Positions 2 to 64,000 of a stretch of DNA of 64,000 bases are shown here, in pieces. The notes beneath the pieces were generated by a model, which saw only the letters and a list, made by a program, of their open reading frames with translations, ran no database searches and was not told the DNA's origin. Both the position numbers and the translations under genes were made by a program. The stretch's first letter is position 1. The number at the start of each line of letters is the position of its first letter. Origin of the DNA: Dehalococcoidia bacterium (GTDB lineage Bacteria > Chloroflexota > Dehalococcoidia > UBA2979); the NCBI GenBank assembly GCA_965262725.1, contig OZ253555.1, positions 672,001-736,000 on the forward strand, given 5' to 3'.

Positions 2-2263
2 GAGCCCGCACCACCCGCCGTCAGCGTCGTCGGCCCGCTGCTCGTCTTCTCCGAGCGACTGGCGCCGCCCGGCGCGGCCGCCGGCGGGCAGGGAGACACG
101 CGGCGCGTGTACGTGTACGACCTCGGGCTCGGGGTCTACTGGGCTGCGCTCGACTACGAGGAGACGGATCGGTCATCGGTGCAGCCGGCGGGCCCGGGGC
201 TCATCGCGTGGAGCGACGGTCAGGTCCGACGCGTGGGCCTCGGAGGTCAGACGGAGGCCACCCTTCTCGAAGGTCGCACCATCGGGTCCGTTCGCGTTTC
301 GCCCGACGGCGCGAAGGTGGCGCTCATGCTCGAGGGGCCGCCGACCGTCCTCGTCCTCGACATCGCCAGCGGTGAGGAGCTGCTTCGGGCCACGAGCGCG
401 GGTTCACTGCTTGCGCCCCTGCGTGAGGCGACATCGGAGCCCGGACCGGTTCTCGGTAGCTGGAGCCACGACAGCGCCGGGCTGGGCGTGGTCTGGGGCG
501 AACGCACCGCGCTGCTCTCGATCGCCGGGGACCTGCGCCTGCTGCCGGTCGACTGGCACGTGTCGCCTCATCTCCGCTACGCCCTGCGCCTTGGCGAGAG
601 TGCCGAGACCGCCTGTCTGAACCGCCACGACTGCAGGGAGACATGGAAGAGCTTCGATGCGATCGACATCGTGACGGCGAACGTGCTGTGGACCGTAACC
701 GGCGCCGAGGGGGCCGGCCTGACGTGGTACTCAGGGGACCATGATGACCGCTGGTGGAGGCCCACCGGCCCGGGATGGTCGGGCGAGCCCCGATTCGTCG
801 CCTTCCGTGACATGGCGGGCGGTCCGCGGATGCTGGACGCCGCCTCGGGGGAGACATATCCGGTCCAGTTCTACCGGAACTCGGTGCCCCGGGAGGCGAG
901 GGGGCTGCTCGAAGGCGGAGCGTGGAGCAACTGCCGCGGAGGCGACGGGCGGGGTCGCAGCTATCCGTGCCAGGTCTGGTACGACGAGCGCGTCGTGTGG
1001 GAGGGGGCGGGGGGGTGGACTCGCTACCTCGGATTCGTGGAGTCGGCAGCCGGACTGGCGCTCCACGGGGTGAGAACGATCGAGGTGGGACCGGAGCCCC
1101 CTGCCGGGGAGCCCCCGGCCCGGGAGGCGATGGTCGGGCCGCTCCTGCTGTACGCGGTGTGGGGCGGACCCGCGTACGCGGACGAGGGCGCCGGTCTCGA
1201 CATCTTCTCAACCTCCGACGTCGAGGCAGTCGCCACCTGGCGTGTGATGGCCTACGACGCAGGCACGGGACGGAGCTGGCCGGCCCACGAGGATCGGTAC
1301 CACTTCTCCTGGTGGGGATCCTCCTGGGGCGACTGGGACGACCAGGTGCAGGGAGCGCGGGACGGTCTCGTCACCGGCGGACCGGGAGGGATGCGCCACA
1401 TCGCCCCCGGCGGCCAGGCGGAGAGGTTGCTGACCGAGCACTGGCCGGCCGAATTCCGCGTCTCCCCGGATGGACGCCGGGTCGCCGCCCGCTTCCACGG
1501 CGGAGGTCGTGGGCCTGATGGGCGCTACAACCCTGCCCGCACCGTCGTCTTCGACCTTCGCTCCGGGGAAGAGATCCTGCGTGTCGTGCACGACGAGATT
1601 CCCACCGCCGTTGGACTACGTTCTGCCGGGTCCGCCTGGACCGTCTGGGGACAGGCATGGACCTCGGACTCCAGCGCCCTCGTGCTGGACGTCGTGGACG
1701 ACCCCATGGGGCACGGGGGTCCGGCGGTCGGGGTCATCGCACGGCTCGACGGCGCGATTCACCGCCTTCCCTGTCCGGGGAACCCTTATTCCGAATCGGG
1801 GAGGTGCGACGCACCCGACGGCAGGCATGTCGTGCGGGGGCGCCAGACGGAGTCGGGGCCGTACACCGAGTCGAACTGGCGATCCATCGACATCATCGCC
1901 GTCGAGTCCGGGGACATCCTCCGGTCCGTCGCGTCGCCCGTCCGTCTCGGTGACTGGGACTGGGAGTGGGCCTCCCCCGACCACTTCGCCTGGTCGGATG
2001 CCCTCCTGCCCCGCGTCTACCCTTCCGAGTTCGCCGCCCGCACCAGGGCGGGCAAGCATGCGGACGTCTCGGTTCTGAACATCCGCACGGGCGAGACCGC
2101 CATGCTGGACATACAGGAGTACCTCGCGCGCTTCCACCCGCCCCCCCGGGCGATCACCGACTGCCCCGAGAACCCCGGACACCCGTGCCGCATCCTTCTC
2201 GACGGCGAGGTCGTGGGGGAGGGGCGCTGGCCCACCATCATCGGCTTCGCCGAGCTCGACTGA
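2..2263 (+). CDS. Probable secreted beta-propeller-like protein with two tandem ~350-aa repeats (5' end outside window)
   Basis: Frame is open from position 2. Two homologous halves (VGPLL..RRVYVYD/VGPLLL..RVMAYD; VSPDG.KVA/VSPDGRRVA; PC.V..D..VV.EG..GF.E) with PD40-like SPDG motifs. Confidence 0.65.
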   Translation, partial: EPAPPAVSVVGPLLVFSERLAPPGAAAGGQGDTRRVYVYDLGLGVYWAALDYEETDRSSVQPAGPGLIAWSDGQVRRVGLGGQTEATLLEGRTIGSVRVSPDGAKVALMLEGPPTVLVLDIASGEELLRATSAGSLLAPLREATSEPGPVLGSWSHDSAGLGVVWGERTALLSIAGDLRLLPVDWHVSPHLRYALRLGESAETACLNRHDCRETWKSFDAIDIVTANVLWTVTGAEGAGLTWYSGDHDDRWWRPTGPGWSGEPRFVAFRDMAGGPRMLDAASGETYPVQFYRNSVPREARGLLEGGAWSNCRGGDGRGRSYPCQVWYDERVVWEGAGGWTRYLGFVESAAGLALHGVRTIEVGPEPPAGEPPAREAMVGPLLLYAVWGGPAYADEGAGLDIFSTSDVEAVATWRVMAYDAGTGRSWPAHEDRYHFSWWGSSWGDWDDQVQGARDGLVTGGPGGMRHIAPGGQAERLLTEHWPAEFRVSPDGRRVAARFHGGGRGPDGRYNPARTVVFDLRSGEEILRVVHDEIPTAVGLRSAGSAWTVWGQAWTSDSSALVLDVVDDPMGHGGPAVGVIARLDGAIHRLPCPGNPYSESGRCDAPDGRHVVRGRQTESGPYTESNWRSIDIIAVESGDILRSVASPVRLGDWDWEWASPDHFAWSDALLPRVYPSEFAARTRAGKHADVSVLNIRTGETAMLDIQEYLARFHPPPRAITDCPENPGHPCRILLDGEVVGEGRWPTIIGFAELD

Positions 2264-2274
2264 ACCTGTCCCCT

Positions 2275-2455
2275 CGCCGTGTCCACCGCGCGCTCGCCAA
2301 CAGGGAGACCGCGGTCATCCTCAACACGCTCTTCGATCGTCTCTACGTCCTCCGCATCCAGCTCATGCACGGCGGGGCGACGTGGCAGAGTTCCGTCAAC
2401 CGCGACCAGGTCCGCGACGGGTCGCGGATCCTGGCGTTCCTCGTGCCCCTGTATC
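2275..2455 (+). pseudogene. C-terminal fragment of a HEPN-domain protein
   Basis: LFDRLYVLRIQLMHGGATWQSSVNRDQVRDG contains an RxxxxH HEPN-type motif; no start codon of its own. Confidence 0.55.
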
Positions 2456-2559
2456 GTCCGGGCCTGCAATTCCTCCGGCTGCTCCGCGTTCAGCGCCGCG
2501 GTCGCGGAAAACTAGCACCCCGTCGATGTCACGCCGGCCACGCCCCCTGAGGCCGGGTG

Positions 2560-3020
2560 ACGCGAGGGGAGCCCCCACGGCAGTCCGCGCTCCGGCGAGC
2601 GGCGGCGCTCCCCGACGCGGACGCGCTCGCGGAGTTACGAGAGCGCCGCGGCGCTCTGCCGGGGAGACTTCCTCGAGGGGGAGCCGTTCCCGTGGCTCGA
2701 CGCCTACCGGGCCAACTACCGCCGGCGCCTGGCCGAGGGCGCGAGCGGGGCGCGGCCGTGGCCGAACGGCTCGGGGAACCGGAGCGGGCGGCCCGCCTCT
2801 ACCAGGCGGTCCTGGATCAGGAGCCGGCGGACGAGGCGGCGGCGCGCGGGCGGATGCGCCTGCTCGCGGCGGCCGGGGACAGCACCGGCGTCCGCCGGGT
2901 CTTCAAGGCGCTGACCGAGGCGCTGCGGCGGGAGCTGGACGACCCGCGGGTCGCGCCCGCGCGGGAGACGAGGGAGTTGCTCGCCGAGCTCTGGCCGGGG
3001 AGCAGGGAGCGGGGGTGTGA
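2560..3020 (+). pseudogene. BTAD (SARP-type transcriptional activator domain) fragment, copy 1, frameshifted
   Basis: AALPDADALAE / RGDFLEGEPFPWL / LDQEPADEAAARGRMRLLAAAGD..VRRVFKALTEALRRELDD..PARETREL; homologous to 18.2-18.45 kb and 29.2-29.65 kb. Confidence 0.75.
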
Positions 3021-3574
3021 TCATGCCGCTCGCCCGGGTGCGACGCGCGGGTCGGATGGGCGGCCGCGGTGCGTGGGGCGCCTGCCCGGCGCTCGCGGGA
3101 GCGGCGCTCCTGCTGGCGGCGATCCTCGGCGTGCGCAGGCGGGAGCCGGCGGACATCGCCTGGGGCGCGGGCTTTGGCGCCTGCTTCCTGGCGCTGGCCT
3201 GGTCGGATCTCCGCAGCCGCGTGATCCCGAACCGGATCGTCTGCCCGGCGCTGGTGCTGGCGCTCGCCGCCTCCGGCGCCTGGCCCGACCGCGCCTTCGC
3301 CGAGGCGCTCACGGGCGGGCTCGGCGCGCTGGCCGCCGCGATCGCCGTCGCCGGCCTGAGCGGAGGCGGGCTCGGCGGCGGGGACGTGAAGATGGCCGCT
3401 CTTGTCGGGGCGGTCGTGGGCTACCCGGCGGTGCTGCCGGCCGGCCTCGTGACCGTGTTGGCGGGAGGCGCGACGGCCGCGGTGCTGCTCGTCACGCGGC
3501 GCGTTGGGCGGGGTGACCGCATGCCGTACGGGCCGTTCATCGCGGCCGGCGCGGTCGCAGCGCTGCTGGCCTGA
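3017..3574 (+). CDS. Prepilin peptidase, A24 family
   Basis: Multi-TM protein with both catalytic Asp motifs, SDLRSRVIPN and GLGGGDVKM, and C-terminal PYGPFI. Confidence 0.85.
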   Translation: MIMPLARVRRAGRMGGRGAWGACPALAGAALLLAAILGVRRREPADIAWGAGFGACFLALAWSDLRSRVIPNRIVCPALVLALAASGAWPDRAFAEALTGGLGALAAAIAVAGLSGGGLGGGDVKMAALVGAVVGYPAVLPAGLVTVLAGGATAAVLLVTRRVGRGDRMPYGPFIAAGAVAALLA

Positions 3575-3709
3575 TGCCGTTGGGGGGCGCCGGCGGATGG
3601 CACCGGCGACGGTGTCGGGGGTGGGCGGATCAGCGCGAGATCGTTCGAGCCCCGTTTGGTGGGCCTGGTGCGAACGCCGAGCAGCGCGGGCGTCGGCCGG
3701 CCGCCCGCC

Positions 3710-4153
3710 TCACTCCCCGAAGAAGTAGCTGGTGCCGTAGCGCTCGCCAATGGCGATGATGTCGTGGGGGCGCTCACCCAGCTCGTCGAAGAGGCCCTCG
3801 ATGCCCGCTGGGGCGAACCAGAAGATCATCTCGGCCTCGCTGTCCGAGTCGTTGCGGAAGCCGTGCCTGGTACCGCGCGGGATGTTCAGGAACGTACCGG
3901 GCCCCGCTTCGACCAGGCGGTCGTCGAGGCGGAAGGTGAGCCGTCCGCGCAGCACGAAGAAGGCCTCTTCCTCGCGACTGTGCACATGCGCGGCCGGCCC
4001 GCCACCGGGCGGCACGATCGCGTGCGTGAGGAAGTAGCTGCCGTGCGTGTGCTCGCCCCGCGCGAGCGTCGCGTAGATGTCGCCGCCGGCCGCCGTCGCC
4101 TGACCCCGACGATCCTCGGGTCGGACGATGCGAGGCTCAATCGGTTCGTTCAT
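3710..4153 (-). CDS. Cupin-domain protein
   Basis: PPGGGPAAHVHSREEEAFFVLRG..GPG..IPRG.RHGFRN; GGAGGAG RBS before the ATG at 4153. Confidence 0.85.
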   Translation of the reverse strand: MNEPIEPRIVRPEDRRGQATAAGGDIYATLARGEHTHGSYFLTHAIVPPGGGPAAHVHSREEEAFFVLRGRLTFRLDDRLVEAGPGTFLNIPRGTRHGFRNDSDSEAEMIFWFAPAGIEGLFDELGERPHDIIAIGERYGTSYFFGE

Positions 4154-4306
4154 GACTCCTCCGTCAGCGCTCTGGTGCCCCAGGACGGCGGCGCGACAGC
4201 CCTGACCCGAGACCTGTAGGCCGAAGCACGATTGTGCCAGACGTAGCGACATGCTGGCTTCCGTCGCCCGGATGGACGAGTCGATCCGCTGAGCAAAGAC
4301 TGGGCC

Positions 4307-4531
4307 CTGCCCCACCCCGTCGTGCACTTCGAGCTCGGGGGCGCCACCGGCACCGCGCTCTAGCGGTTCTACGCGGCTGCCATCGGGTGGGAGGTCAACG
4401 TCGACCACCACACAGGCATCGACGGCGGGATCGCCGCCGCGGAGCAGCAGCGGATGGTGACGATCGCGCTGTTCGCCGACCCCAGGGGCAACTTCATCGG
4501 GCTGGTCCAGCCGGAGACGCCTCCCGCGTAG
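4307..4531 (+). pseudogene. VOC/glyoxalase family remnant
   Basis: PHPVVHFELG..L*RFY..IGW..IALFADPRGNFIGLVQ; in-frame TAG at 4361 and an internal deletion. Confidence 0.7.
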
Positions 4532-5395
4532 GGTAGCCTTGGTACCCGGTGGCTGCGAAGGTGCGGCGATCTGGAGTAGGGACAGGCGGGCCATCCCCCG
4601 CTGTCCAACACGGGAGCGATTCACGCCGCGACGCCGCGACGCGGGCCCGCTCCGCCGGGCTCGCGACCGGGCGGCGCGGGGATCACGCCGGCGGTCGCCG
4701 TTCTGCGTGATCGCTTAAGCCGTGCGTAGACTGCACGCGCGAGCGGGCGGAGCGTGAGGCGGGACTGACCGACGGGTCCGGGGGCGACTGGCGGCGCGAG
4801 GCGAAAGCCCCCTCGCGACGCGCCCCACCCACCACGACCGGATCGTGAGAGAGCGTGGCGATGGCGACCGCTCATGGGATCGCGCCCGGGGAGCTGCGGG
4901 AGTGAATGGCATGCCGCGAGCTCACGGTGGGAGGCCGGCGGCGCCGCTCGACGTGGGGGTGATAACGCCGCCTCGCCGGCGAACGGGCACTGCGCGCCCG
5001 GCGTGCCTGCCGCCGGCGCTGCAGGCGGCAGGTGCCGACGGCTGCGCGCCCGCGCCGGCGGAGGGCCGGTCCACCGACGGCCCCGCCACGGCCGCCCGGC
5101 GCGGCCCGCCCGCGAGCCCTGAGCCGTGGCCCTCGACTCGCCGGGGTCCCCGGGAGGGAGAGGGAGCGGCCTGGATCCCCGAGGGCGACCTGACGGCGGA
5201 CGGCGGCGGGGGTGGGCGGGCTCGCCGGGCACCAGGCCCGGGAGCGGCTCCAGCGCCGTGCCGCTCTCGTCGAGCTGCCCGTCCAGGAGCCCGCGAGCGT
5301 CCCGTCGCCCGGTCGTGCGTGGCCCCGATGGCGGCGCGGCGTGCGGGATCCGGCCGCGGAGCCGGGCCCGCGGTGGCGCCCTCGCCGGAGACCCG

Positions 5396-6316
5396 ATGAG
5401 CGAGGCCGGCGAGACCTGGTGGGTCTACGAGGACGATATCGCCGCGCACGCGCGCGTCCACAAGGCGAGCTGCTGGCACTGCAACAACGGCCGCGGCCAC
5501 AGCCGTCTTCCCAGCAACCGCTGGCATGGCCCGTACGCGAGCGAAGCGGAGGCGCTCCGTCTCGCCGTGCGCCTCTGGCCGGACGACGCCCGCGTGTGCA
5601 ACCGGTGTGCGGGTCGCGGCACGGCGACCGCGGCCGAGGCGCGCACGCCGGCCACGTGGACGGCCTACGGCTCCGCCTGGCGCCGCTTCAGCGCCTGGTG
5701 CGAGGAGCGGGGAGCCCAGGCGCTGCCGGCCACCTCCGAGGACGTCGGCAGCTACCTGCTCGAGCGCATCGCCCAGGGCCGCACGCCCTCGACCGTCAAC
5801 GTCGACGCCGGTGCGATCTCCGCGCAGCACCGCGACGCCGGACTCCCCGATCCGACGCGGGCGGAGAGCGTGCTCCGCCTGGTCGGCGAGCAGCGGAGCC
5901 GGCGGCGCGGCGCGGCGCGGCGCGGCGACCCGCTCACGGCCGCCCGACTCGACCAGGTGCTTCAGGCGATCCCCGACACGGCGATCGGCCGGCGCGACCG
6001 CGCGCTGCTGCTGGTGATGCGCGACTGCCGGCTGCGGCCGTTCGAAGCCGCGGCGCTGAGGTGGAGGGACGTCGCGGCCGGCGGCGTGGCGATCGCGGTG
6101 CGCCTCACCCAGGTCCGCGGGAGCGTCACGGTCGACCTGTGGCTGATCAGCGAGCGAGCGCGCCAGGCGCTCGCCGCCCTCCTCCCGGACGCGGAGCGCG
6201 ATCCCGAGCAGCACGTCTTCCTGGTGGTCACCGCCCCGCGGCGCGGTCAGCCGCTGAGCGGGGACACCGTCAGCGACATCGTCCGGCGCCGCGTGAAGGC
6301 CGCCGGGATCGAGGGG
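5396..6316 (+). pseudogene. Cre-like tyrosine recombinase with an N-terminal Cys/His domain, 3'-truncated by IS110
   Basis: SAM-like N-domain (T..AY..AWRRF..WC..LPA..V..YL) and RDRALL..LR..E box. Homology stops at AAGIEG, exactly at the IS110 end, before the HxxR and Tyr motifs. Confidence 0.75.
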
Positions 6317-8118
6317 AGACACCCCATGTCCGTAACGCGCAAGGGGCGCCCCCACCCGGGCAGCGAATCGGGGTGTCGGGTGCGCGATGCGCAAGGAGAT
6401 CGTGAGCAGTCGGAGCGCCGTGTTAGAGCCGTGCGCGCGGCGGTGTTCCGAGGTCGACGCCGCCGCAGAGAATGGTCTTGGCCGGCGTGAGATGGGTGTC
6501 GGCTTCTGCGGACATGCGGTGGCTGGCCGACCGCTGCCGGTCGCCCGTGACGCGGGGTGCGCAGGTACTCGCCTCGCCGAGTTGCGCCCTCAACGAGCTC
6601 CAGACCCTGGATGAGTCGCGGCCCGCCGAGGCGCTCCGCGACCTCCGTCAGGCGGCGAGCTCAGCGTCCTCGGTGCCCAGGCCGCCCCAGGCAGTCTCCT
6701 CGTCGTAGAGCCGGCGCTTGTGCAGGCAGCCGTGCAGGAACGCGACCAGGCGGTTGGCGAGGGCGCGCAGCGCCTGGTTGTGCCCGTCGCCGAGCGCCCG
6801 CCGCTGCTGGTAGTACGCCCGGCACCCGGGACTCGCCTGGAGCGAGCAGAACGCCCACATGTGTATCGCGTCGTAGAGGCGCCGGTTCCGCACGTGGCGC
6901 GCGGTGACCGCCCGCTTCCGCCCCGATGATATGGTGAGCGGCGACGTGCCCGCGTAGTTCCTGCGGGACTTCGCGGACACGAAGCGTTCGGGGTCATCCC
7001 CGAACTCGCCCAGCACCCGGGCGCCGAGCACGGGCCCCAGGCCCGGCATCGACAGGTAAATCGCGGCGTCCGGGTGCTCCTCAAGAGACGCGGCCAGCTT
7101 CGACTCCAGTACCTCGAGTTGCCGGTTGATCTCCTGGAGCTGGGCAACCTGGGCGAGCACGCTGTCGGCGAACGCCTCGCTGAGCGCGGGCGCGACCGGG
7201 AGCGTGCGGAGCCGGAGTACCTCGCGTATCTCTTCCGCCCGCGTGTCCAGGTTGCGCTTGCGGCCTCCGCGCCTGAGCGCCGCGCGGAGCTGCGTCCGCG
7301 TCAGCTTCGCCGCCGCGAGCGGCTCCGGGGCGACGGCCAGCACCGAGAGCGCATCGGGATGCGTGAGGTCGGGGAAGGCCTGGAGTGCGGCCGGGAAGTA
7401 CTGCAGCAGCGCGCTGCGCAGCCGGTTGCTCTCGCGGGTGCGATTCCAGACCAGCTGCTGCTGGGCGCGGGCGCGCACCTGCACGGCGGAGGCGAGGGCG
7501 CTGTCGCCCGCGACCGGCCGGTGGTTGTGGCTGTCGGTGCGAACGAGGTTCGCGAGCATGCGCGCATCGCCCCGGTCCGACTTCCCGCCGCCGACCTGGT
7601 GTCGCTCGCGGTAGAGGGCCGCCACCCGCGGATTGATGGCGTAGACCCGGTAGCCCGCGCCGATGAGCGCTGCGACCCACGGGCCGCGGTCGGTCTCGAT
7701 GCCGACCACGACCTGGCCGGCCTCCTGTGCATGCTCGGCGAGCAGCGCATGGAGCGCGGTCATGCCCTCCGCTCCCTCGGGGAGTCGCTTCGCCGCGAGG
7801 CTCTCGCCCTCCTCGTTCATGACATGGACATCGTGATGGTCCTCGGCCCAGTCGTCGCCCACGTACACCGTCAACCCGTGCTCCCTTCCTGCTCGACCCT
7901 GCTGGCTAAACCCACGGGCCTGCTCCGCAACGAGCTAATGGCACGGTGCTCTACAGGCACGACACCCCATCAGTGCATCGCAGGCCCGGACGAACCAGCC
8001 GGGGCACGGTCTACCTGTGGAGGTCGCAAGCGCCTCAGCGTTGGTCAGTGCTCTCCGACTGGCGGGTCCGGAACCATCCTCCCAGATCGCTCTGGTCCTC
8101 TGGTTCGGCTCCCATTAG
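6317..8118 (-). mobile_element. IS110 family element with CT core dinucleotide at both ends
   Basis: Minus strand: left junction ..CCG-CT-AATGGG (8118-8111), right end ..CATGGGGTGT-CT (to 6317). Both junctions coincide with truncated genes. Confidence 0.7.
6648..7874 (-). CDS. IS110 family DEDD transposase/recombinase
   Basis: VGDDWAEDHHDV, GIET, KSDRGDA, SMPGLG..LGEFGDD.RF, YAGTSP..SSG, ALRALANRL. Confidence 0.95.
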   Translation of the reverse strand: MTVYVGDDWAEDHHDVHVMNEEGESLAAKRLPEGAEGMTALHALLAEHAQEAGQVVVGIETDRGPWVAALIGAGYRVYAINPRVAALYRERHQVGGGKSDRGDARMLANLVRTDSHNHRPVAGDSALASAVQVRARAQQQLVWNRTRESNRLRSALLQYFPAALQAFPDLTHPDALSVLAVAPEPLAAAKLTRTQLRAALRRGGRKRNLDTRAEEIREVLRLRTLPVAPALSEAFADSVLAQVAQLQEINRQLEVLESKLAASLEEHPDAAIYLSMPGLGPVLGARVLGEFGDDPERFVSAKSRRNYAGTSPLTISSGRKRAVTARHVRNRRLYDAIHMWAFCSLQASPGCRAYYQQRRALGDGHNQALRALANRLVAFLHGCLHKRRLYDEETAWGGLGTEDAELAA

Positions 8119-56992: not shown

Positions 56993-57766
56993 TCAATCAC
57001 CTCCCGTCTGCGCCTCGAGCAGGGCGCGGTGCGGCGAGAGCCGCTGGCGGTAGCTATCGCCCTCGATCACGATCTGGTAGCTGGCGTTGGCGAGGCGGTC
57101 GAGGGCGCTGTTGCCGAGGATCGGGTCGTCGAAGAGACCCAGCCATTCCTCCACGGCGCGGTTCGAGGTGATGACGAAGCTCGAGCTGCGGTGGCGCCCG
57201 ATGACCAGCTCGTAGAGGTCGATGGACTGCTGCGCGCTGAGGCGATGGAGCCCGAGGTCGTCGAGGATGAGCAGGTCGGGGGCGAGGAAGCTTCGGAAGA
57301 CCTTCTCGGCCGAGTGGTCGACGCGGGCCTGCGCCATCTCGCGGAAGTAGTGGTCGGCCGGGGCGAAGCGCACGCTGCGTCCGGAGCGGACGGCTGAGTA
57401 GCCGAGCGCCTGGGCTAAGAAGCTCTTGCCGACGCCGACGGGGCCGACGAGCAGGACGTGTTCGCGGCGATCGAGGAAGTGCAGCGAGAAGGCGGCGTCG
57501 AACAGGCGGCGGTCGAGCCGGATGGCGGCCGCCCAGTCGAAGTCCTCGAGGCGGCAGAGCTGCTCGAAGCCGGCCTGGCGCAACCGCAGCTCCAACCGCC
57601 CGTGGTCGCGGCGGCTCACCTCGTCGACGAGCAGGATCTGCAGGAAGTCCGCGTAGTCGAGGTGGTCGCGCCGCGCGAGGGCGATGCGCTCGGGCAACGT
57701 GTCGAGCATGCGGCCGAGCTTGAGGCGCTTGAGCAGCGGACGGAGGTCTGAGGTGGTGGCGGTCAT
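56993..57766 (-). CDS. istB: IS21 helper ATPase IstB
   Basis: GPVGVGKS, LILDDLG, TSNR, ALDRL, GDSYR. Confidence 0.95.
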   Translation of the reverse strand: MTATTSDLRPLLKRLKLGRMLDTLPERIALARRDHLDYADFLQILLVDEVSRRDHGRLELRLRQAGFEQLCRLEDFDWAAAIRLDRRLFDAAFSLHFLDRREHVLLVGPVGVGKSFLAQALGYSAVRSGRSVRFAPADHYFREMAQARVDHSAEKVFRSFLAPDLLILDDLGLHRLSAQQSIDLYELVIGRHRSSSFVITSNRAVEEWLGLFDDPILGNSALDRLANASYQIVIEGDSYRQRLSPHRALLEAQTGGD

Positions 57767-59343
57767 CGTGGTGCTCCTGTCGGGGTCTGCGTGCGGGACT
57801 GTGCGAAGACGGAGCCCGAGTGGGCGAAGCGCCCCGGAGGCGGCGGCAGCTCGGGCTGGTCTGGGGTGCTCTCCTGGTCGAGGGCCTCGACGAGGATGCG
57901 CTCGAGGCGGCGCACGTCGATGAGGTCGACCTCGAGCGCGCGGCGGCAGGCGGCGTCGAGGCGGGCGGGGGAGTAGCGCTCGGCGAGGCGGAGCAGCTTG
58001 TGGCCCTGCCGGAGCTTCGCCCAGGGCAGGGAGCCCTCGAAGAGACGCTCGGCGTAGGCGCCCACGGCCTCCCCCAGCTCGGCGGCGCGGCGCTGTATCC
58101 AGTCGGGCGCCCGCCTGGTGTAGGGGGTGAGCTCGGCCGGGTAGTCGTTCGGGTCGGTGGCGCGGCCGCCCCGGCGCTGGCGCGGGTGGACCTTGATGAG
58201 CTGACCGCGGTGGTAGATGCGCACCAGCTTCGAGCCGAGCTGCACCTCGACCTTCTGGCGGGGCGGGCAGGCCGTGGACGGCACCGAGTACAGCGCGTAC
58301 TGGCAGGCGATGTGGTGGTCGGGATGGACCGTGGCGGTCCGCCAGTCGGGGACCTCGTAGGGCTCGCCGTCCCAGGGAGCGAGGAGAGGGAGCTCCTCCT
58401 CCCGGAAGACCTCGAGCGGCCGGCGGCGGGTCGTGCCGTGGATGCGCTGTCCCGCCACCTCCAGGCACCAGCTGCGGGCGGCGGAGCGCAGGTCGACGAC
58501 GTCCCGGAAGTCGCCGCCCTTGAAGAGGCGCTCGCGCACGTAGGGGATGCTGCGCTCGACGCGCGGCTTGTCGCGGGGATGACGCACGCGCGCGGGGTCG
58601 GTGATGAAGCCGCGGTGGCGGGCGTACTCGAGGAAGCCCCGCGTGAAGCGCGGGTGCAGCGCGTCGGCCCCGGCGACGGCGGCCGGGAAGTTATCGATGA
58701 CGAGGTAGCGGGGCACTCCCCCGAAGAAGGCCCAGGCCTCCTCCAGGCCCTCGATCACAGCGTCCAGCTTCTGGCTGGTGGTGGGCCACACAAAGCAGTG
58801 GCGGGAGTAGCGCCAGACGACGACCAGCGCCCACACCGCGCGCCGACGGCCGCTCTCGGGGTCCCGGATGAAGCCGAGGCGGCCGAAGTCCATCTCCGCC
58901 ACCTCGCCCGGCGGCCCGTCGTCCATGCGCACGGTCGACGGCAGCCGGTGGCGCCAGCCGCGGCGCCGGATGAAACGCCGCAGCGTGGTGTAGGAGACCT
59001 CGCAGCCTCGTCCGGCGAGGAGCTCCTGGATGCGCGTCAGTTGCAGGCGGTCGGTCTCAAGCCAGCGCTCGATCTGCTCCGCCCAGGGCGAGAGCAGCTC
59101 TTCGCTCGGCGCCTCGACCTGCCGCGGGCCGGAGAGGCTCAGCGTCGCCAGCGCGGCGAGCTGCTCCTCACTCGGCTCGGGACCGTCAGGTGTGAGGCCG
59201 GCCGCTTCGGCCGCGTCGATGTAGCGGCGGACCGTCTGACGCGACAACCCCATCCCGCTGGCGATGCGGCGCTGGCTGAGCCCCGCCTGCCAGCGACGAA
59301 TGATCTCCTGGATCTCCACCCCGTGTACCTCCCGGTAGGCCAT
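57763..59343 (-). CDS. istA: IS21 transposase IstA
   Basis: AEMDFG, VIDN, PRDKPRVE, YSVP. Confidence 0.95.
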   Translation of the reverse strand: MAYREVHGVEIQEIIRRWQAGLSQRRIASGMGLSRQTVRRYIDAAEAAGLTPDGPEPSEEQLAALATLSLSGPRQVEAPSEELLSPWAEQIERWLETDRLQLTRIQELLAGRGCEVSYTTLRRFIRRRGWRHRLPSTVRMDDGPPGEVAEMDFGRLGFIRDPESGRRRAVWALVVVWRYSRHCFVWPTTSQKLDAVIEGLEEAWAFFGGVPRYLVIDNFPAAVAGADALHPRFTRGFLEYARHRGFITDPARVRHPRDKPRVERSIPYVRERLFKGGDFRDVVDLRSAARSWCLEVAGQRIHGTTRRRPLEVFREEELPLLAPWDGEPYEVPDWRTATVHPDHHIACQYALYSVPSTACPPRQKVEVQLGSKLVRIYHRGQLIKVHPRQRRGGRATDPNDYPAELTPYTRRAPDWIQRRAAELGEAVGAYAERLFEGSLPWAKLRQGHKLLRLAERYSPARLDAACRRALEVDLIDVRRLERILVEALDQESTPDQPELPPPPGRFAHSGSVFAQSRTQTPTGAPR

Positions 59344-59835: not shown

Positions 59836-60564
59836 CTACCGCGACCGTCGGAGAGAGAGATCGGCAACGACGCCGAAGTGATCTGAGAGCTCCCGCTCCT
59901 CGAGCATATTACTGATCACGTACACGTGCTCGACCGTCAGATCCTCGCTGAGCGCGATGTGGTCGATGCTCTTGCGGTCATTGTGGGTAACCGGACCGGT
60001 CGCGATCGTGATATCCGAGGAGAAGCACTCGCGGAGCGCCGACCTGGTCCTGGCCGGCGCTCGGCCGCCCGGACCGACGACCTGATTGAAGTCGCCCATC
60101 ACGATGAGGCGCTCTGAAGTCCCCCGCCTCAGGATCGCCGTGAGACCGGCCACGTACCGCTCGTGGTCCTCCCACCGCCGCTTGCGCCCCGGCCCGCGGC
60201 GCTCCTCGGTCCGCGACCCGAACCAGGGGATGCAGACCCCGATCACGGTGACGGGTCCCAGTGATGTCCGGGTGATGCCGGACACGTACCGCCCGGGCGG
60301 CATCGAGGTGAGGCCCGCGTCGTCGACGTGCTCCCACGGCTCCCGGGACCAGAGCATGACTTTCCGGCGGTGCTCCCGGATCGGGTAGCCGTAGTCGGGC
60401 CCTGAGCGGGCGACGCATCCGTCTGGAGCAAGCAGCTCGTCATGGGTCTCGGTGAGGCAGAGCACCTCGGGATCCCAGCCGGCAATGCGGCGCAGGATCT
60501 CCGGCGTTCGCCGCGATCTGGGAGTCGCCCACCTGACATTCCACGTCGCCACCCTCAGCTGCAC
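59836..60564 (-). CDS. Endonuclease/exonuclease/phosphatase family protein
   Basis: ATWNV, LTET, MGDFN, IDHI, SDH; AAGGAG RBS. Confidence 0.85.
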   Translation of the reverse strand: MQLRVATWNVRWATPRSRRTPEILRRIAGWDPEVLCLTETHDELLAPDGCVARSGPDYGYPIREHRRKVMLWSREPWEHVDDAGLTSMPPGRYVSGITRTSLGPVTVIGVCIPWFGSRTEERRGPGRKRRWEDHERYVAGLTAILRRGTSERLIVMGDFNQVVGPGGRAPARTRSALRECFSSDITIATGPVTHNDRKSIDHIALSEDLTVEHVYVISNMLEERELSDHFGVVADLSLRRSR

Positions 60565-60581
60565 GCTCGACTCCTTCGGGT

Positions 60582-61700
60582 GTGCGCCTTGAAGTTGAAG
60601 GACGGTGCAGGATGACCTGACCAGTCTGGAGACGTGCTCGTTGTCGCCAACCGGTGCAAGTCCGGTCCGGGTAACTATCAGGAGGCTCGGTAGCAGGTCG
60701 GCGGCTTGGTCTGGAAACGGACCGGGTCGGAGCCCGACGTCGAAAGCCCTTTCAGGGGAAGCAAACACACGGTCCGCAGCATAAAGCGAAGCCTGCCGCG
60801 TCGTAAGAGTCCCCGCCATTGGCGGGAAAGAGGAAGAGCCGAGCCCCGACCCTCAGGGCGAAGGCCATGGAAGAGATGAAGACCTGGAATCGCAATCTCG
60901 AAGAACTTCCCGGCGTAAGGGGCGTGGAACGTGTGGAAGGTGACAACGGGAACAAGGGAGGCCCTCCCCGGCCCGGTACCTGCGGAATGGTGTCGGAGTG
61001 AGGCGTCCTATAACCGGTGATGAGCCGGGAAGTGGGCGACCTGCCGGGAGGGAGTCGGAGGCGGCCATATTACCGACTGAGCCGAGCGGACAACAGAACC
61101 GCCGGTGAGGGAAGGGCCGCTACTTCGCCTGTGCGTGTTGCTTGGGGAAGGATCGGTGAGTGCCCGTGGAGGCTAGACCCGCCAAGGAAACGGTCCGAGA
61201 ACTACAGCGCACGCTCTACCGGGCGGCCAAGGCCGAGCCCGGACGACGTTTTCATGCGCTCTACGACAAGGTCCACCGCAGGGACGTTCTGGAGCGCGGG
61301 TGGGGGCAAGTGCGTCGCAATCGCGGCGCAGCCGGCATCGACGGCATCACCCTTGCCGAGGTCGAACGCTACGGCGTGGACCGACTGCTTGACGAACTGT
61401 CCGTGGAACTGAAGGCGGAGAGCTATCGCGTGCAGCCGAGCCGCCGGGTCTGGATTCCCAAGCCCGGACGGTCGGAGCGACGACCGCTCTCTATCCCGAC
61501 GGTCCACGACCGCATCGTACAGGCAGCGCTGAAGCTGGTGGCGGAGCCGGTCTTTGAGGCCGACTTTCTGCCGTGTAGCTTTGGCTTTCGCCCGAAGCGT
61601 GCGGCGCATGATGCCCTGCAAGTGCTCATTGATGAGACGTGGCGGGGTCGGCGATGGGTGGTGGAGACGGATATCGCCTCGTGTTTCGAGTCGATACCGC
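60582..61700 (+). mobile_element. Group II intron 1, 5' part (outer)
   Basis: GTGCG 5' end at 60582, ~580-nt leader, then RT ORF. Confidence 0.8.
61160..61700 (+). pseudogene. ltrA: Group II intron reverse transcriptase/maturase N-terminal part, interrupted by intron 2
   Basis: LYDKV, GAAGIDG, IPK..RPL.IP..DRIVQ, SFGFRP, DIASCFESIP, followed immediately by GTGCG. Confidence 0.85.
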
Positions 61701-62422
61701 GTGCGTCCGGAAGTCGAAGGGGTGGTGACGTGATGACGTGACCGGTCCGGAGACATGCTCGTTGCTGCCAGCCGGTGAGAGTCCGGCACGGGTAACTGTC
61801 AGGAGGCCCGTTAGCAGGTCGGCGGCGTGGACGGGAAACGGTCTGCGTCGAAGCCCGACGTCAAGAGCCCTATGAGGGGGAGCAAACGTGCGGTCCGCAG
61901 CATGACGCGAAGTCTGCCGCGCCGTGAGACTCGCCTGTCTATTGACAGGACCAAGGAGGAGCCGAGCCCGGGTGGTCAGGGCGAAGGCCATGGACGAGGT
62001 GAAGATCCTGGAATGCAGCCTCAAGAAACCTCCCGGCGTATGGGACGTGGAACGTACGGAAGGTAGCGACGGGAACCGGAGAAGCCCTCCCCGGCCCGGC
62101 ACCCTGTGAGAGGGCGTCGGAGCGAGGCGTCCTATAACCGGTCAGAGCCGGGAAGTGGACAGCCAGCCGGAAGGGTGGCGGAGGGGGTCGTAGTACCGCT
62201 GGAGCCGGACGGACAACATAACCGCCGGTGATGGGAAGGACCCCTACTTTGTCCGTGCATGTTGCTGGGGGTGTGGACTGGTGAGTGCCCCTCGGGGCTA
62301 GCAACCACTTGGTAGGGTTCGAGGCTCTCCGCACATGCTGTACCGGCTGGCCAAGGCACGACCCACGTTGTGGGGAGCGCTGCATGCCATCTGGTGAAGG
62401 GCATCGGTGAGCCGGATGAGGG
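61701..62422 (+). mobile_element. Group II intron 2, ORF-deleted, inserted in the intron 1 RT gene
   Basis: GTGCG at 61701; RNA colinear with the intron 1 leader; only an RT stub (LYRLAKA) before the domain-V start GAGCCGGATGAGGG. Confidence 0.8.
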
Positions 62423-64000
62423 GTGCGCCAAGCTAACTGGTGTTTGGACAGGGGGTGAAAGTCCGCCGCGGTGAAGGGGCTAGCCACCCTACACCGCTCC
62501 CCGAGCCGTGCGTGGGTCGCTGCGAGGCGGCACGCGAAGCGTCGGTAGGGGTACATGTGGGCAAGGCTATAGAGCGCCGAAAGTGGCATCGTTCGGAGTG
62601 CCGAGGCTTTCTCGCAGGTCGAAGGCAACAGCGGCGGCGGCGTTTTTTTTTGGCGAGCCGTCGCCGTCTCCGCGGCGTCTAAGAACCATTGCACGCATGC
62701 ACGTCCATCACCGGGACTTGGGAGAGCTGCGCGCCGCCCCGGCGAGTCGTACGTCGGGGCCGCGTCGGGAAGGGAGGCAACCGTAGCCGATGATGAACGA
62801 CGCGCAGCAGTCTGATGGGGCCGTACGAGCGATGAAGGCGGCGAACAAAGGGGCGCGAGCCCTGGCGGAGTCGCTGGAGCAAAGGGCCCCAGCCGAGAGG
62901 AATCGGCGACGCTCCGGCACAGTCCGGTCTCAGAATCGGGGAGCTGTGTCACCCGGAGCGGAGCGGATACGGCAGCTCGCAGAGAAGAAGCCGGGAGAGA
63001 AACTCATCGCGCTCCTGCACCACATCACGCCGGAAACACTCAAGGAGGCGTACCACGCTTTGAAGCGGGACGCGGCTCCGGGCGTGGACGGGGTGACGTG
63101 GCGGGAGTACGGGGACGGGCTGGAAGAGCGACTGCTCGACCTGCACGGCCGCGTGCACCGGGGAGCGTATCGGGCGAAGCCCGTGCGGCGGGTAGAGATA
63201 CCAAAGCCGGACGGGGGCATACGACTGCTCGGTATCGTCACGCTGGAGGACAAGATCGTTCAGCGGGCAGTGGTGGACAATCTCTTGAATCCGATATTCG
63301 AGTCGGAGTTCTGCGGCTTCTCGTATGGCTTCAGGCCGGGGCGCTCGGCGCATGACGCGCTGGACGCCCTGGCCTACGCGGTCGAACGGCGCAAGGTCAG
63401 TTGGGTTGTCGAGGTGGACATCCGGCAGTTCTTCGACAGCATCGACCGGGAGCGGCTGATGTCGTTTCTGGAGATGCGCATCGGGGACCGGCGGGTGCTG
63501 CGCCTGATACGAAAGTGGCTGAACGCCGGCGTCATGGACGCGGAGACGGAAGTCGACTTTGTGCGGGGGACGCCGCAGGGAGCGCCGATATCGCCGCTGC
63601 TTGCGAACGTGTACCTGCATAACGTGCTCGACGACTGGTTCGCGCGTGTGTGGCGACCGCAGGAGGCCCAGGGCGAGGCGTACATCGTGCGGTATGCCGA
63701 TGACTTCATCCTGGGGTTTCAGCATCGCAGCGATGCGATGCGGTTCATGGAGGCACTCCGGGAGCGGTTCGCGGCCTACGGGCTAGAACTGCACCCGGAG
63801 AAAACCCGCCTGCTGTCGTTCGGTAGGTTCGCAGCGGCGAACAGGCGGCAGCATGGGGAGGGGCGACCGGAGACGTTCGACTTCCTCGGCATGACGCACT
63901 ACTGCCGGACGATGCAGAACGGGCGATTCGGGTTGGGGCGTAAGCCCTCAGCGAAGCGTATGCACCGCACGCTCAAGGCCATTAGGGCCGAGTTGCGGCG
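62423..64000 (+). mobile_element. Group II intron 3 (different lineage), inserted in domain V of intron 2; runs off the window
   Basis: GTGCG at 62423 directly after GAGCCGGATGAGGG; distinct leader sequence and RT. Confidence 0.85.
62790..64000 (+). CDS. ltrA: Group II intron reverse transcriptase/maturase (3' end outside window)
   Basis: ALLHHI, AAPGVDG, EDKIVQ, GTPQGA.ISPLLANVYL, RYADDF, FDFLG; frame open to the window end. Confidence 0.95.
   Translation, partial: MMNDAQQSDGAVRAMKAANKGARALAESLEQRAPAERNRRRSGTVRSQNRGAVSPGAERIRQLAEKKPGEKLIALLHHITPETLKEAYHALKRDAAPGVDGVTWREYGDGLEERLLDLHGRVHRGAYRAKPVRRVEIPKPDGGIRLLGIVTLEDKIVQRAVVDNLLNPIFESEFCGFSYGFRPGRSAHDALDALAYAVERRKVSWVVEVDIRQFFDSIDRERLMSFLEMRIGDRRVLRLIRKWLNAGVMDAETEVDFVRGTPQGAPISPLLANVYLHNVLDDWFARVWRPQEAQGEAYIVRYADDFILGFQHRSDAMRFMEALRERFAAYGLELHPEKTRLLSFGRFAAANRRQHGEGRPETFDFLGMTHYCRTMQNGRFGLGRKPSAKRMHRTLKAIRAELR

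Follow-up and report, generated by a model that had tools for sequence, protein, structure and literature searches.

This locus raises the question of whether three group II introns lie one inside another in a bacterial chromosome and, if they do, whether the two inner ones arrived there by chance or belong to lineages that home to other introns. The sequence analysed (hereafter the window) is a stretch of 64,000 nt from the genome of a Dehalococcoidia bacterium (GenBank assembly GCA_965262725.1, contig OZ253555.1, forward-strand positions 672,001 to 736,000), which lies on a single 3.67-Mb contig (G000:C1:672001-736000 in our numbering). The three introns, numbered 1 to 3 from the outside in, run past the end of the window, and their missing parts were examined in a 19-kb segment fetched around that end (L011; position x of L011 is window position x + 58999). 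The genome of the window is referred to as G000; it was compared with G003, of the same genus, with G008, a related Dehalococcoidia metagenome-assembled genome on a single contig, and with G018, of another genus. Introns of the RF02003 type in Rfam are called family 1 (1A and 1B), and those of the Rfam D1D4-6 type (RF02005) family 3. The Rfam gathering scores are 49 for RF02003 and RF02005 and 40 for RF00029, the model of domains V and VI (DV and DVI). For the reverse transcriptases (RTs) we used TIGR04416, a profile of 353 positions with a curated cut-off of 300.

An earlier note, made from the letters of the window, had read the locus as a triple nest, and the landmarks that it named were all found in their places: the three GTGCG starts at 60582, 61701 and 62423, the RT frame that ends in CFESIP, and the half hairpin GAGCCGGATGAGGG (Table 1). 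The group II domain I-IV models of Rfam match all three introns full-length, on the plus strand and above the gathering score. Introns 1 and 2 share one type (RF02003, at 60648-60784 with 91.8 bits and at 61769-61905 with 102.8 bits, respectively), and intron 3 is of another (RF02005, at 62458-62687 with 152.6 bits, E 7.7e-44). The nest could have dissolved into tandem fragments in the sequence beyond the window, where the missing parts of introns 3, 2 and 1 are all present, in reverse order. Within 2.5 kb there follow the end of intron 3, the rest of the DV of intron 2 with its DVI, the rest of the RT gene of intron 1 (RT 1), and the DV/DVI of intron 1. Excision of each inner intron in silico restores the outer element exactly. 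The locus is a true three-level nest and not a series of tandem fragments.

Table 1. Positions of the nested introns, their genes and recognition elements, and pairings between exon-binding site 1 (EBS1) and intron-binding site 1 (IBS1) in the lineage of intron 3 and its relatives. ORF, open reading frame.
Feature	Window	L011	Strand	Description
Intron 1	60582 to ~65446	1583-6447	+	own length 2080 nt
Intron 1, 5′ segment	60582-61700		+	family 1A; GTGCG start, domains I-IVa, N-terminal RT half
Intron 1 EBS2	60807-60812		+	GAGTCC; EBS1 ACCC at 60849-60852
RT 1, N-terminal half	61160-61699		+	180 codons, ends FESIP
Intron 2 homing site in RT 1	61687-61700		+	IBS2 CGAGTC 61687-61692; IBS1 ACCGC 61696-61700
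Intron 2		2702-3423 + 5347-5486	+	862 nt
Intron 2, 5′ segment	61701-62422	resumes 5347	+	722 nt
Intron 2 EBS2	61928-61933		+	GACTCG; EBS1 GTGGT at 61972-61976
Intron 2 DV, 5′ half	62409-62422		+	GAGCCGGATGAGGG; last six bases TGAGGG = intron 3 IBS1
Intron 3	62423-64000, on to ~64345	3424-5346	+	1923 nt; GTGCGCC...CCGCGAA; RT-encoding, family 3
Intron 3 EBS1	62611-62616		+	CTCGCA, last six bases of 9-nt variable loop between GCCGAGGC and GGTCGAAGG
RT 3 ORF	62790-64000	ends 5290	+	499 aa; RT + maturase, YADD, no endonuclease domain
Endonuclease/exonuclease/phosphatase-family gene	59836-60576		-	Pfam PF03372, E 6.3e-17
Intron-3 lineage, window	62417-62422 (IBS1)			CTCGCA : TGAGGG, 5/6
Intron-3 lineage, G008 DVs				CTCGCA : TGCGGG, 6/6 (one G.U)
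Intron-3 lineage, L057				CTCGCA : CGCGGG, 5/6
C2 and L028				TGGATT : GATCCA, 6/6
L067				CACCAC : GTGGTG, 6/6
c1682				CCATTT : AACTGG, 5/6
L066				CCATTT : ATTTGG, 4/6

Intron 1, the outermost element, resumes at L011 5487 after the inserted sequences and ends at L011 6447 with ...CACCCTAC. Its DV/DVI match RF00029 at L011 6290-6447 (36.5 bits, E 4e-5), and its 5′ segment is 100% identical to two other 1A copies found by BLAST in G000. The EBS loops of intron 1 pair with the 5′ exon ...CGACTCCTTCGGGT here and with GGACTC...CGGGT at three other 1A sites, and they covary with their targets across seven family-1 lineages. The RT 1 gene is interrupted within a histidine codon, which intron 2 divides as C/AC (here and below, a slash marks the point of insertion). 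The YADD motif and the maturase domain are encoded in its C-terminal 263 codons (L011 5489-6277), after which a stop stands at 6280; the sequence after the end of intron 2, ACGACCGGTTGATGGAG..., carries the frame on as (H)DRLMEAVEE.... The two halves cover positions 2-137 and 140-352 of TIGR04416, and positions 1-83 and 90-204 of Pfam RVT_1, plus GIIM. When the insert is removed in silico, the gene reads ...ASCFESIPHDRLMEAVE, with 180 + 264 open codons and a frame free of stop codons and frameshifts. An uninterrupted family-1 RT of 444 aa, reading ...CFESIPHDRLM..., is present in G003. Neither RT 1 nor RT 3, the product of intron 3, has an endonuclease domain in Pfam. The family-1 introns also have an unusually long DVI, with about 120 nt from DV to the 3′ end (L011 5347-5486 and 6325-6447; L012 2240-2362), whose fold is a long, branched stem bearing the bulged A at -7.

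Intron 2 is without an RT ORF, the only frames in it being of 79 and 61 aa, and it ends at L011 5486 with ...GACCCTAC. BLAST and exact-end searches found 28 copies of it in G000: over the 722 nt of the 5′ part, 25 show 100% identity and one differs by a single mismatch, and two more are identical but split by insertion sequences (ISs). The uninterrupted DV reads GAGCCGGATGAGGG followed by AGAACCTCACGTCCGGTTC in 27 of the 28 copies. In the window copy, AGAACCTCACGTCCGGTTC stands directly after the end of intron 3, and the DV minus intron 3 equals the sequence of the 27 uninterrupted copies. It folds as a bulged hairpin of 14 bp with a 5-nt loop, GAGAA (z = -4.6), and its catalytic AGC is intact; the DVI has a bulged A at -7. 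With RF00029, intact copies of intron 2 score 37.3 bits, below the gathering score.

The position of intron 2 corresponds well with its recognition loops. EBS2 (GACTCG) complements CGAGTC at -14 to -9 and EBS1 (GTGGT) pairs with ACCGC at -5 to -1, as the nested reading in the earlier note led one to expect, and both loops covary with the 5′ exons throughout the seven family-1 lineages compared (intron 2, 1A, 1B, and four relatives from G003, G008 and G018). A TIGR04416 search of G000 gave 53 matches, and the 12 above the cut-off are all of family 3. Every family-1 RT of the genome is split at profile position 138/139, giving 15 N-terminal and 15 C-terminal halves. These 15 genes belong to three copies of 1A and 12 copies of 1B, the latter about 80% identical to 1A, and in each of them intron 2 directly follows ...TTCGAGTCGATACCGC, at codon 181 of 444, upstream of YADD. 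Its removal in silico restores ASCFESIPHDRLM in 15 of 15 genes and a full-length RT frame in 11; the other four also have IS insertions or truncations. The remaining 13 copies of intron 2 occupy sites that have TCGAG...CYRC in common. Among 31 related genomes (G000 included), the 5′ part of intron 2 was matched in four and the ORF-less form of 862 nt in G000 only; near-identical but empty FESIP-type RT sites are present in G003 and G018. These sequence comparisons support the assignment of intron 2 to an intron-targeting lineage that would home to the FESIP/H site of family-1 RT genes.

Several other insertions in or near such genes were noted. At G000:C1:549500-551223, two full copies of intron 2 stand in tandem within one 1B RT gene; the occupied 5′ exon retains IBS1 and IBS2, with only the +1 base changed from A to G, and can apparently be hit again. 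Another copy (G000:C1:1524130-1524991) interrupts a family-3 RT gene at ...TACGAGTCGGGCTAC/TACGGCTTC (protein ...YESGY/YGF...), and looks like an ectopic insertion at a look-alike of the FES site. Inserts of 2.6 kb and 1.2-1.4 kb in other copies were considered as further introns and rejected, since they are an IS21-type element, an IS without a Pfam match and an IS with a DDE transposase. In G018, a family-1 RT gene (G018:C24:29551-32889) is split by about 2.2 kb at TIGR04416 position ~185, which is not the FESIP site.

The boundaries of intron 3 were set by comparison with intact copies of intron 2, and they place the insertion in the DV loop, which is split after its first G. The DV/DVI of intron 3 match RF00029 at L011 5273-5346 (30.3 bits, E 0.0013), and the bulged A is at -8. 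The frame of RT 3 is without a stop codon or frameshift; the protein scores 360.7 bits with TIGR04416, has only RVT_1 and GIIM among Pfam domains, and is 39% identical to the family-1 RT of G003. Together with the RF02005 match, this intact RT of 499 aa agrees with the view, already put forward, that intron 3 is of a lineage other than that of its hosts. Intron 3 is present as a single copy in G000, where the other family-3 copies (about 15 in total) are at most 86% identical to it.

The register of EBS1 in intron 3 was set by aligning the 9-nt loop between GCCGAGGC and GGYCGAAGG across six lineages; the resulting pairings are listed in Table 1. An earlier EBS1 candidate, TTCTCG, which required three wobbles, was superseded by this register from more lineages. 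With the register so aligned, the recognition loop of intron 3 complements the 5′ strand of the catalytic DV hairpin: CTCGCA pairs at five of six positions with the TGAGGG of the window and at all six with the TGCGGG found in its relatives. A query of public genomes with RT 3 returned 11 loci. Three of these, in G008, hold full-length introns that are 92.7-92.9% identical to intron 3 and are inserted between GGTGAGCCGTGTGCGGG and AGAACCGCA..., that is, at the same DV loop position, in family-1 introns that encode an RT. At a fourth G008 locus (L058), a chimera is followed by a DV 3′ half as its 3′ exon, and the fifth family-1 DV of that genome (L059, loop GCAAA) is empty, so that four of the five are occupied. 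The DV-resident copies are at most 86% identical to the sister lineages, which target IS ends. The G008 copy at L057 lies at a non-intron site that mimics the DV target, GGTGAGC...GCGGG/AG. These results support the placing of intron 3 in an intron-targeting lineage that would home into the DV loop. The recurrence counts and the EBS complementarity thus point to both inner introns as intron-targeting lineages, and the idea of introns specialised in parasitising introns, which had been offered as a suggestion, is now supported by numbers: intron 2 in 15 of 15 family-1 RT genes and the lineage of intron 3 in four of five family-1 DVs of G008.

Class C (IIC) introns are characterised by a small ribozyme, the lack of EBS2, an IBS1 of 3-4 nt, and insertion just after a terminator or attC stem-loop. 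Intron 3 has a small 5′ part, with 367 nt before the ORF, and an EBS1 of 6 nt, and it is inserted within a hairpin loop (its sister lineages at an IS end) and not after a stem-loop. The solved structures do not discriminate between classes here, as RT 1 and RT 3 both best match the same IIC RT chains (E 1e-46 and 3e-58). The sister lineage C2, with 13 loci in G000 (e.g. 1849781-1851697) and ten intact RTs, starts with GAGCG rather than GUGYG in all 13. Its insertion point lies 14 nt within a repeated IS-like end, ...GATCCA/CCGAAG; class C-like hairpin targeting was rejected for it, the upstream inverted repeat being two IS ends head to head. One C2/IS composite is inserted at position 338 of a 1A intron (G000 1874882-1878478). 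The chimera mentioned above (L026/L058, G008:C1:2448996-2450953) has a 5′ third that is C2-like, with an IS-end 5′ exon, and 3′ two-thirds that are like intron 3; it is probably a recombinant of two intron copies. The 5′ exon of the family-3 intron at L066 (G360:C1) ends in 10 bases (CTCCATTTGG) that are the same as the EBS1 loop region of this intron and not its complement.

How might the nest have arisen? We consider it very probable that it was built by three successive retrohoming events, each guided by pairing between a loop of the intron RNA and its DNA target. A family-1A intron encoding an RT would have inserted antisense beside the endonuclease/exonuclease/phosphatase-family gene. The 862-nt ORF-less relative, intron 2, would then have inserted at its regular homing site, which encodes FESIP/H, and intron 3, which encodes an RT and is of a different lineage, would finally have inserted in the end loop of the DV of intron 2. 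Both inner introns would in this way use conserved parts of introns as dependable homing sites.

The DV helix forms the catalytic centre of group II introns, and its end loop normally makes a tertiary contact. A 1.9-kb insert in this loop should block or greatly weaken intron 2, and the cut DV suggests a splicing order in which intron 3 leaves before intron 2. From the unspliced transcript, intron 3 would produce its RT and then excise itself, whereby the DV of intron 2 would be rejoined; the rejoined intron 2 would then splice, either with a family-1 RT in trans or by self-splicing; and its exit would rejoin the RT 1 frame, whose YADD lies downstream of the cut. Being placed in the domain IV loop that holds the ORF, intron 2 blocks the translation of RT 1 and does not disrupt the ribozyme fold of intron 1. 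Of the strictly inside-out splicing that the earlier note had proposed, the step 3 before 2 is therefore likely to hold, and the step 2 before 1 would not be needed for the ribozyme of intron 1. Since intron 2 makes no protein and is present in every RT gene of its family, RT can come only from transcripts from which intron 2 has been spliced, whether by self-splicing or with the help of RT already present.

A number of observations weigh against this reconstruction. The DV matches of introns 1 and 3 fall under the gathering score (36.5 and 30.3 vs 40), and on others three further explanations can be built. One is that near-identical intron repeats (28 copies of intron 2 and about 15 of family 3 in G000) caused a false join in the assembly, the elements not being nested in the cell. 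None of the listed Logan short-read contigs bridges the junctions between introns 2 and 3, where these contigs end exactly, so that it is the single-contig assembly that carries the junctions. In favour of an exact nest, an uninterrupted form is seen in a 1440-nt contig of run X5, from a different study, which links L011 2700 to 5486 with zero differences; this run is without depth on the unique flanks of the window locus, and the joined contig therefore derives from another 1A copy, in which, the kind of run being unrecorded, an empty DNA site is likelier than spliced RNA. We regard an assembly artefact as extremely improbable. Introns 2 and 3 share no junction sequence, which leaves a repeat-driven misjoin nothing to use; the two junctions coincide exactly with intron termini (GTGCG... 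and ...CGCGAA), the DV loop being split at a single phosphodiester bond; intron 3 of the window is a unique variant, at most 86% identical to every other copy in G000; and the same architecture is found at three loci of G008, which was assembled independently as a single contig. A second explanation would accept the nest and take intron 3 as a one-off ectopic insertion into DV, with the G008 nests descending from one old insertion that was copied with its outer intron. In G000, 30 sites of the form GCCGNNTGNGGG/AGAACC are empty and one is occupied (31 in all), and three 1A DVs that match perfectly (TGCGGG), that of intron 1 included, are empty. The pairing in the window, five of six, has an internal G.A mismatch at -4, and intron 3 is without a second copy in the genome. 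In G008, L023 and L027 are 100% identical within similar outer introns; they may have spread as composite twintrons, which would leave about three independent DV insertions only. Strong specialisation is further opposed by the distribution of the family-3 5′ part, which occurs in 4 of 401 sampled genomes of the class, all of one family. A scan of metagenome contigs for the DV/intron-3 junction pattern (16 specified bases) gave 20 matches, none of which continues as intron 3; they look like chance matches in GC-rich coding DNA. What makes this explanation quite unlikely in our view is, to begin with, the outer intron 2 of the window, which is 100% identical to uninterrupted copies in G000 and thereby marks the insertion as recent and independent of those in G008. 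Moreover, the outer DVs within G008 differ (L054/L055 vs L056), as do the inner introns (94.7% identity), EBS1 CTCGCA is a six-of-six complement of the DV strand TGCGGG, and the sole non-intron site, L057, resembles the DV sequence.

It could also be that the composite is an inert pile-up that no longer splices, intron 2 having disabled all family-1 RT genes and intron 3 having disabled this copy of intron 2. The nest is known from DNA, and its splicing is read from the anatomy of the sequence. A scan upstream of the nest found no sigma-70-like promoter, the host gains nothing from splicing of a nest that is antisense to the neighbouring gene, and ISs have landed in several copies as well. As none of the 15 family-1 RT genes is uninterrupted, the source of a maturase for intron 2 is not evident. 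We find the pile-up rather doubtful all the same. Identity among 27 of the 28 copies of intron 2, and likewise among all three 1A copies, points to very recent mobility, for which a working RT is needed. Furthermore, taking out intron 2 leaves 11 of 15 family-1 RT frames full-length, RT 1 and RT 3 of the window have neither a stop codon nor a frameshift, and the catalytic AGC, the bulged A and the matches to the ribozyme models are all intact. Successive retrohoming of three introns is the explanation that we prefer.

One could envision a wider arrangement, which we put forward as a tentative possibility: a two-tier hyperparasite system among the retroelements of Dehalococcoidia, in which an ORF-less intron saturates the RT genes of its helpers and the EBS1 of a separate lineage reads the DV hairpin of the same family. 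If this is true, then the supply of RT, and with it all family-1 mobility, would be gated by the splicing of the ORF-less parasite itself, and the DV-reading lineage would keep the ribozyme of its host switched off for as long as it stays there. The DV loop would then serve as a regular homing site, favoured since its sequence is held constant by selection on catalysis, and the parasitism of introns on introns would act as a brake on intron proliferation. G000 shows two different ways for an intron to live on another intron. Its saturated helper RT genes, which have no bypass, amount to a natural experiment on whether splicing alone is enough for an ORF-less intron to sustain the expression of its helper, and the lineage of the second inner intron recognises its target with a loop that pairs with another ribozyme's catalytic hairpin. 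Both bear on the proliferation of introns, on its restraint, and on the origin of multi-level intron structures.

Nested introns are already known. In Thermosynechococcus elongatus, the passages of Mohr, Ghanem and Lambowitz (2010; PMC2882425) on TeI3/TeI4 describe an ORF-less deletion derivative whose homing sites lie in the ORF regions of RT-encoding relatives. As those passages have it, that genome and G000 are alike in having identical ORF-less inner copies in diverged RT-encoding outer introns, in that some introns target IS elements, and in proliferation to dozens of copies. The same passages give five of eight ORF-containing introns of T. elongatus as interrupted, between two alternative start codons, which yields protein without splicing. 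In G000, by contrast, 15 of 15 are interrupted inside the RT domain upstream of YADD, which leaves no translational bypass, and there is a third level, from another lineage, in DV. In Methanosarcina acetivorans, nests of up to five levels are described (Dai and Zimmerly 2003, RNA 9:14, as reported in parts of PMC4424553 and PMC2882425). According to these second-hand accounts, ORF-less and RT-encoding introns there likewise home repeatedly and site-specifically into other group II introns, the flanking exons are without a host gene, and the whole has been interpreted as a perpetual homing site; they differ from the present case in being archaeal and in homing into related intron ORFs, and the excerpts do not describe homing to the DV loop. 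The twintrons of Euglena gracilis chloroplasts need sequential, inner-first splicing, as a section of PMC4424553 states. There, as in the window, the inner intron interrupts a domain of the outer ribozyme and would have to leave first. The inner intron of the Euglena psbF twintron reportedly lies in domain V. These introns are organellar and degenerate and are without evidence of lineage homing through an EBS1 complementary to DV, whereas in Dehalococcoidia the DV target recurs in two bacterial genera and the RT is intact.

In the bacterium Trichodesmium erythraeum, sequential splicing of Tr.e.I7/I8 has been shown in vivo (Pfreundt and Hess 2015; PMC4649490), and the sections of that paper on the subject describe bacterial twintrons as rare. 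From the same sections, this twintron resembles the one formed by introns 2 and 3 in having an inner RT-encoding intron within a ribozyme domain of its host, in that case domain I. It has two levels at a single locus in a protein-coding gene, whereas in G000 there are three levels, the location is intergenic/antisense, the target is the DV loop, and the pattern is genome-wide. Full-text searches of the literature found no group II intron or twintron paper on Dehalococcoidia and, in the portions of text that they returned, no description of DV-loop homing in bacteria; the portions from PMC12584367, PMC5572947, PMC7049729 and PMC3534033 gave nothing on DV homing. Homing to the catalytic DV hairpin appears to be new in bacteria, and the features that distinguish the present system are this DV-loop homing and the complete saturation of the helper RT genes.

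The nest runs antisense to the PF03372 gene and lies at or just upstream of its 5′ end, so that no host gene depends on splicing. Read through the empty site, the start of the gene gives MTRVSDFRTNPKESSVQLRVATWNV...; the homologue in G003 is conserved only from LRVATWNV onward, which makes the true start uncertain. Just upstream of the nest, an IS21-type element occupies window positions 56993-59343 on the minus strand, with an IstA-like protein of 526-552 aa, which has a Mu-transposase C domain, and an IstB ATPase. G000 has 17 copies of this element, and three of them interrupt copies of intron 1A or intron 2 (344100-346790, 406280-408990 and 291380-294060); the 1A copy of the window is the only one without an IS in its RT gene. 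The genome as a whole yields about 60 DV matches and several nests. A tRNA-Sec gene lies 10 kb downstream (L011 16141-16233, minus strand, 71.6 bits), and window positions 6969-7050 give a marginal match (51.7 bits; gathering score 50) to the actinobacterial small RNA Ms_AS-4.

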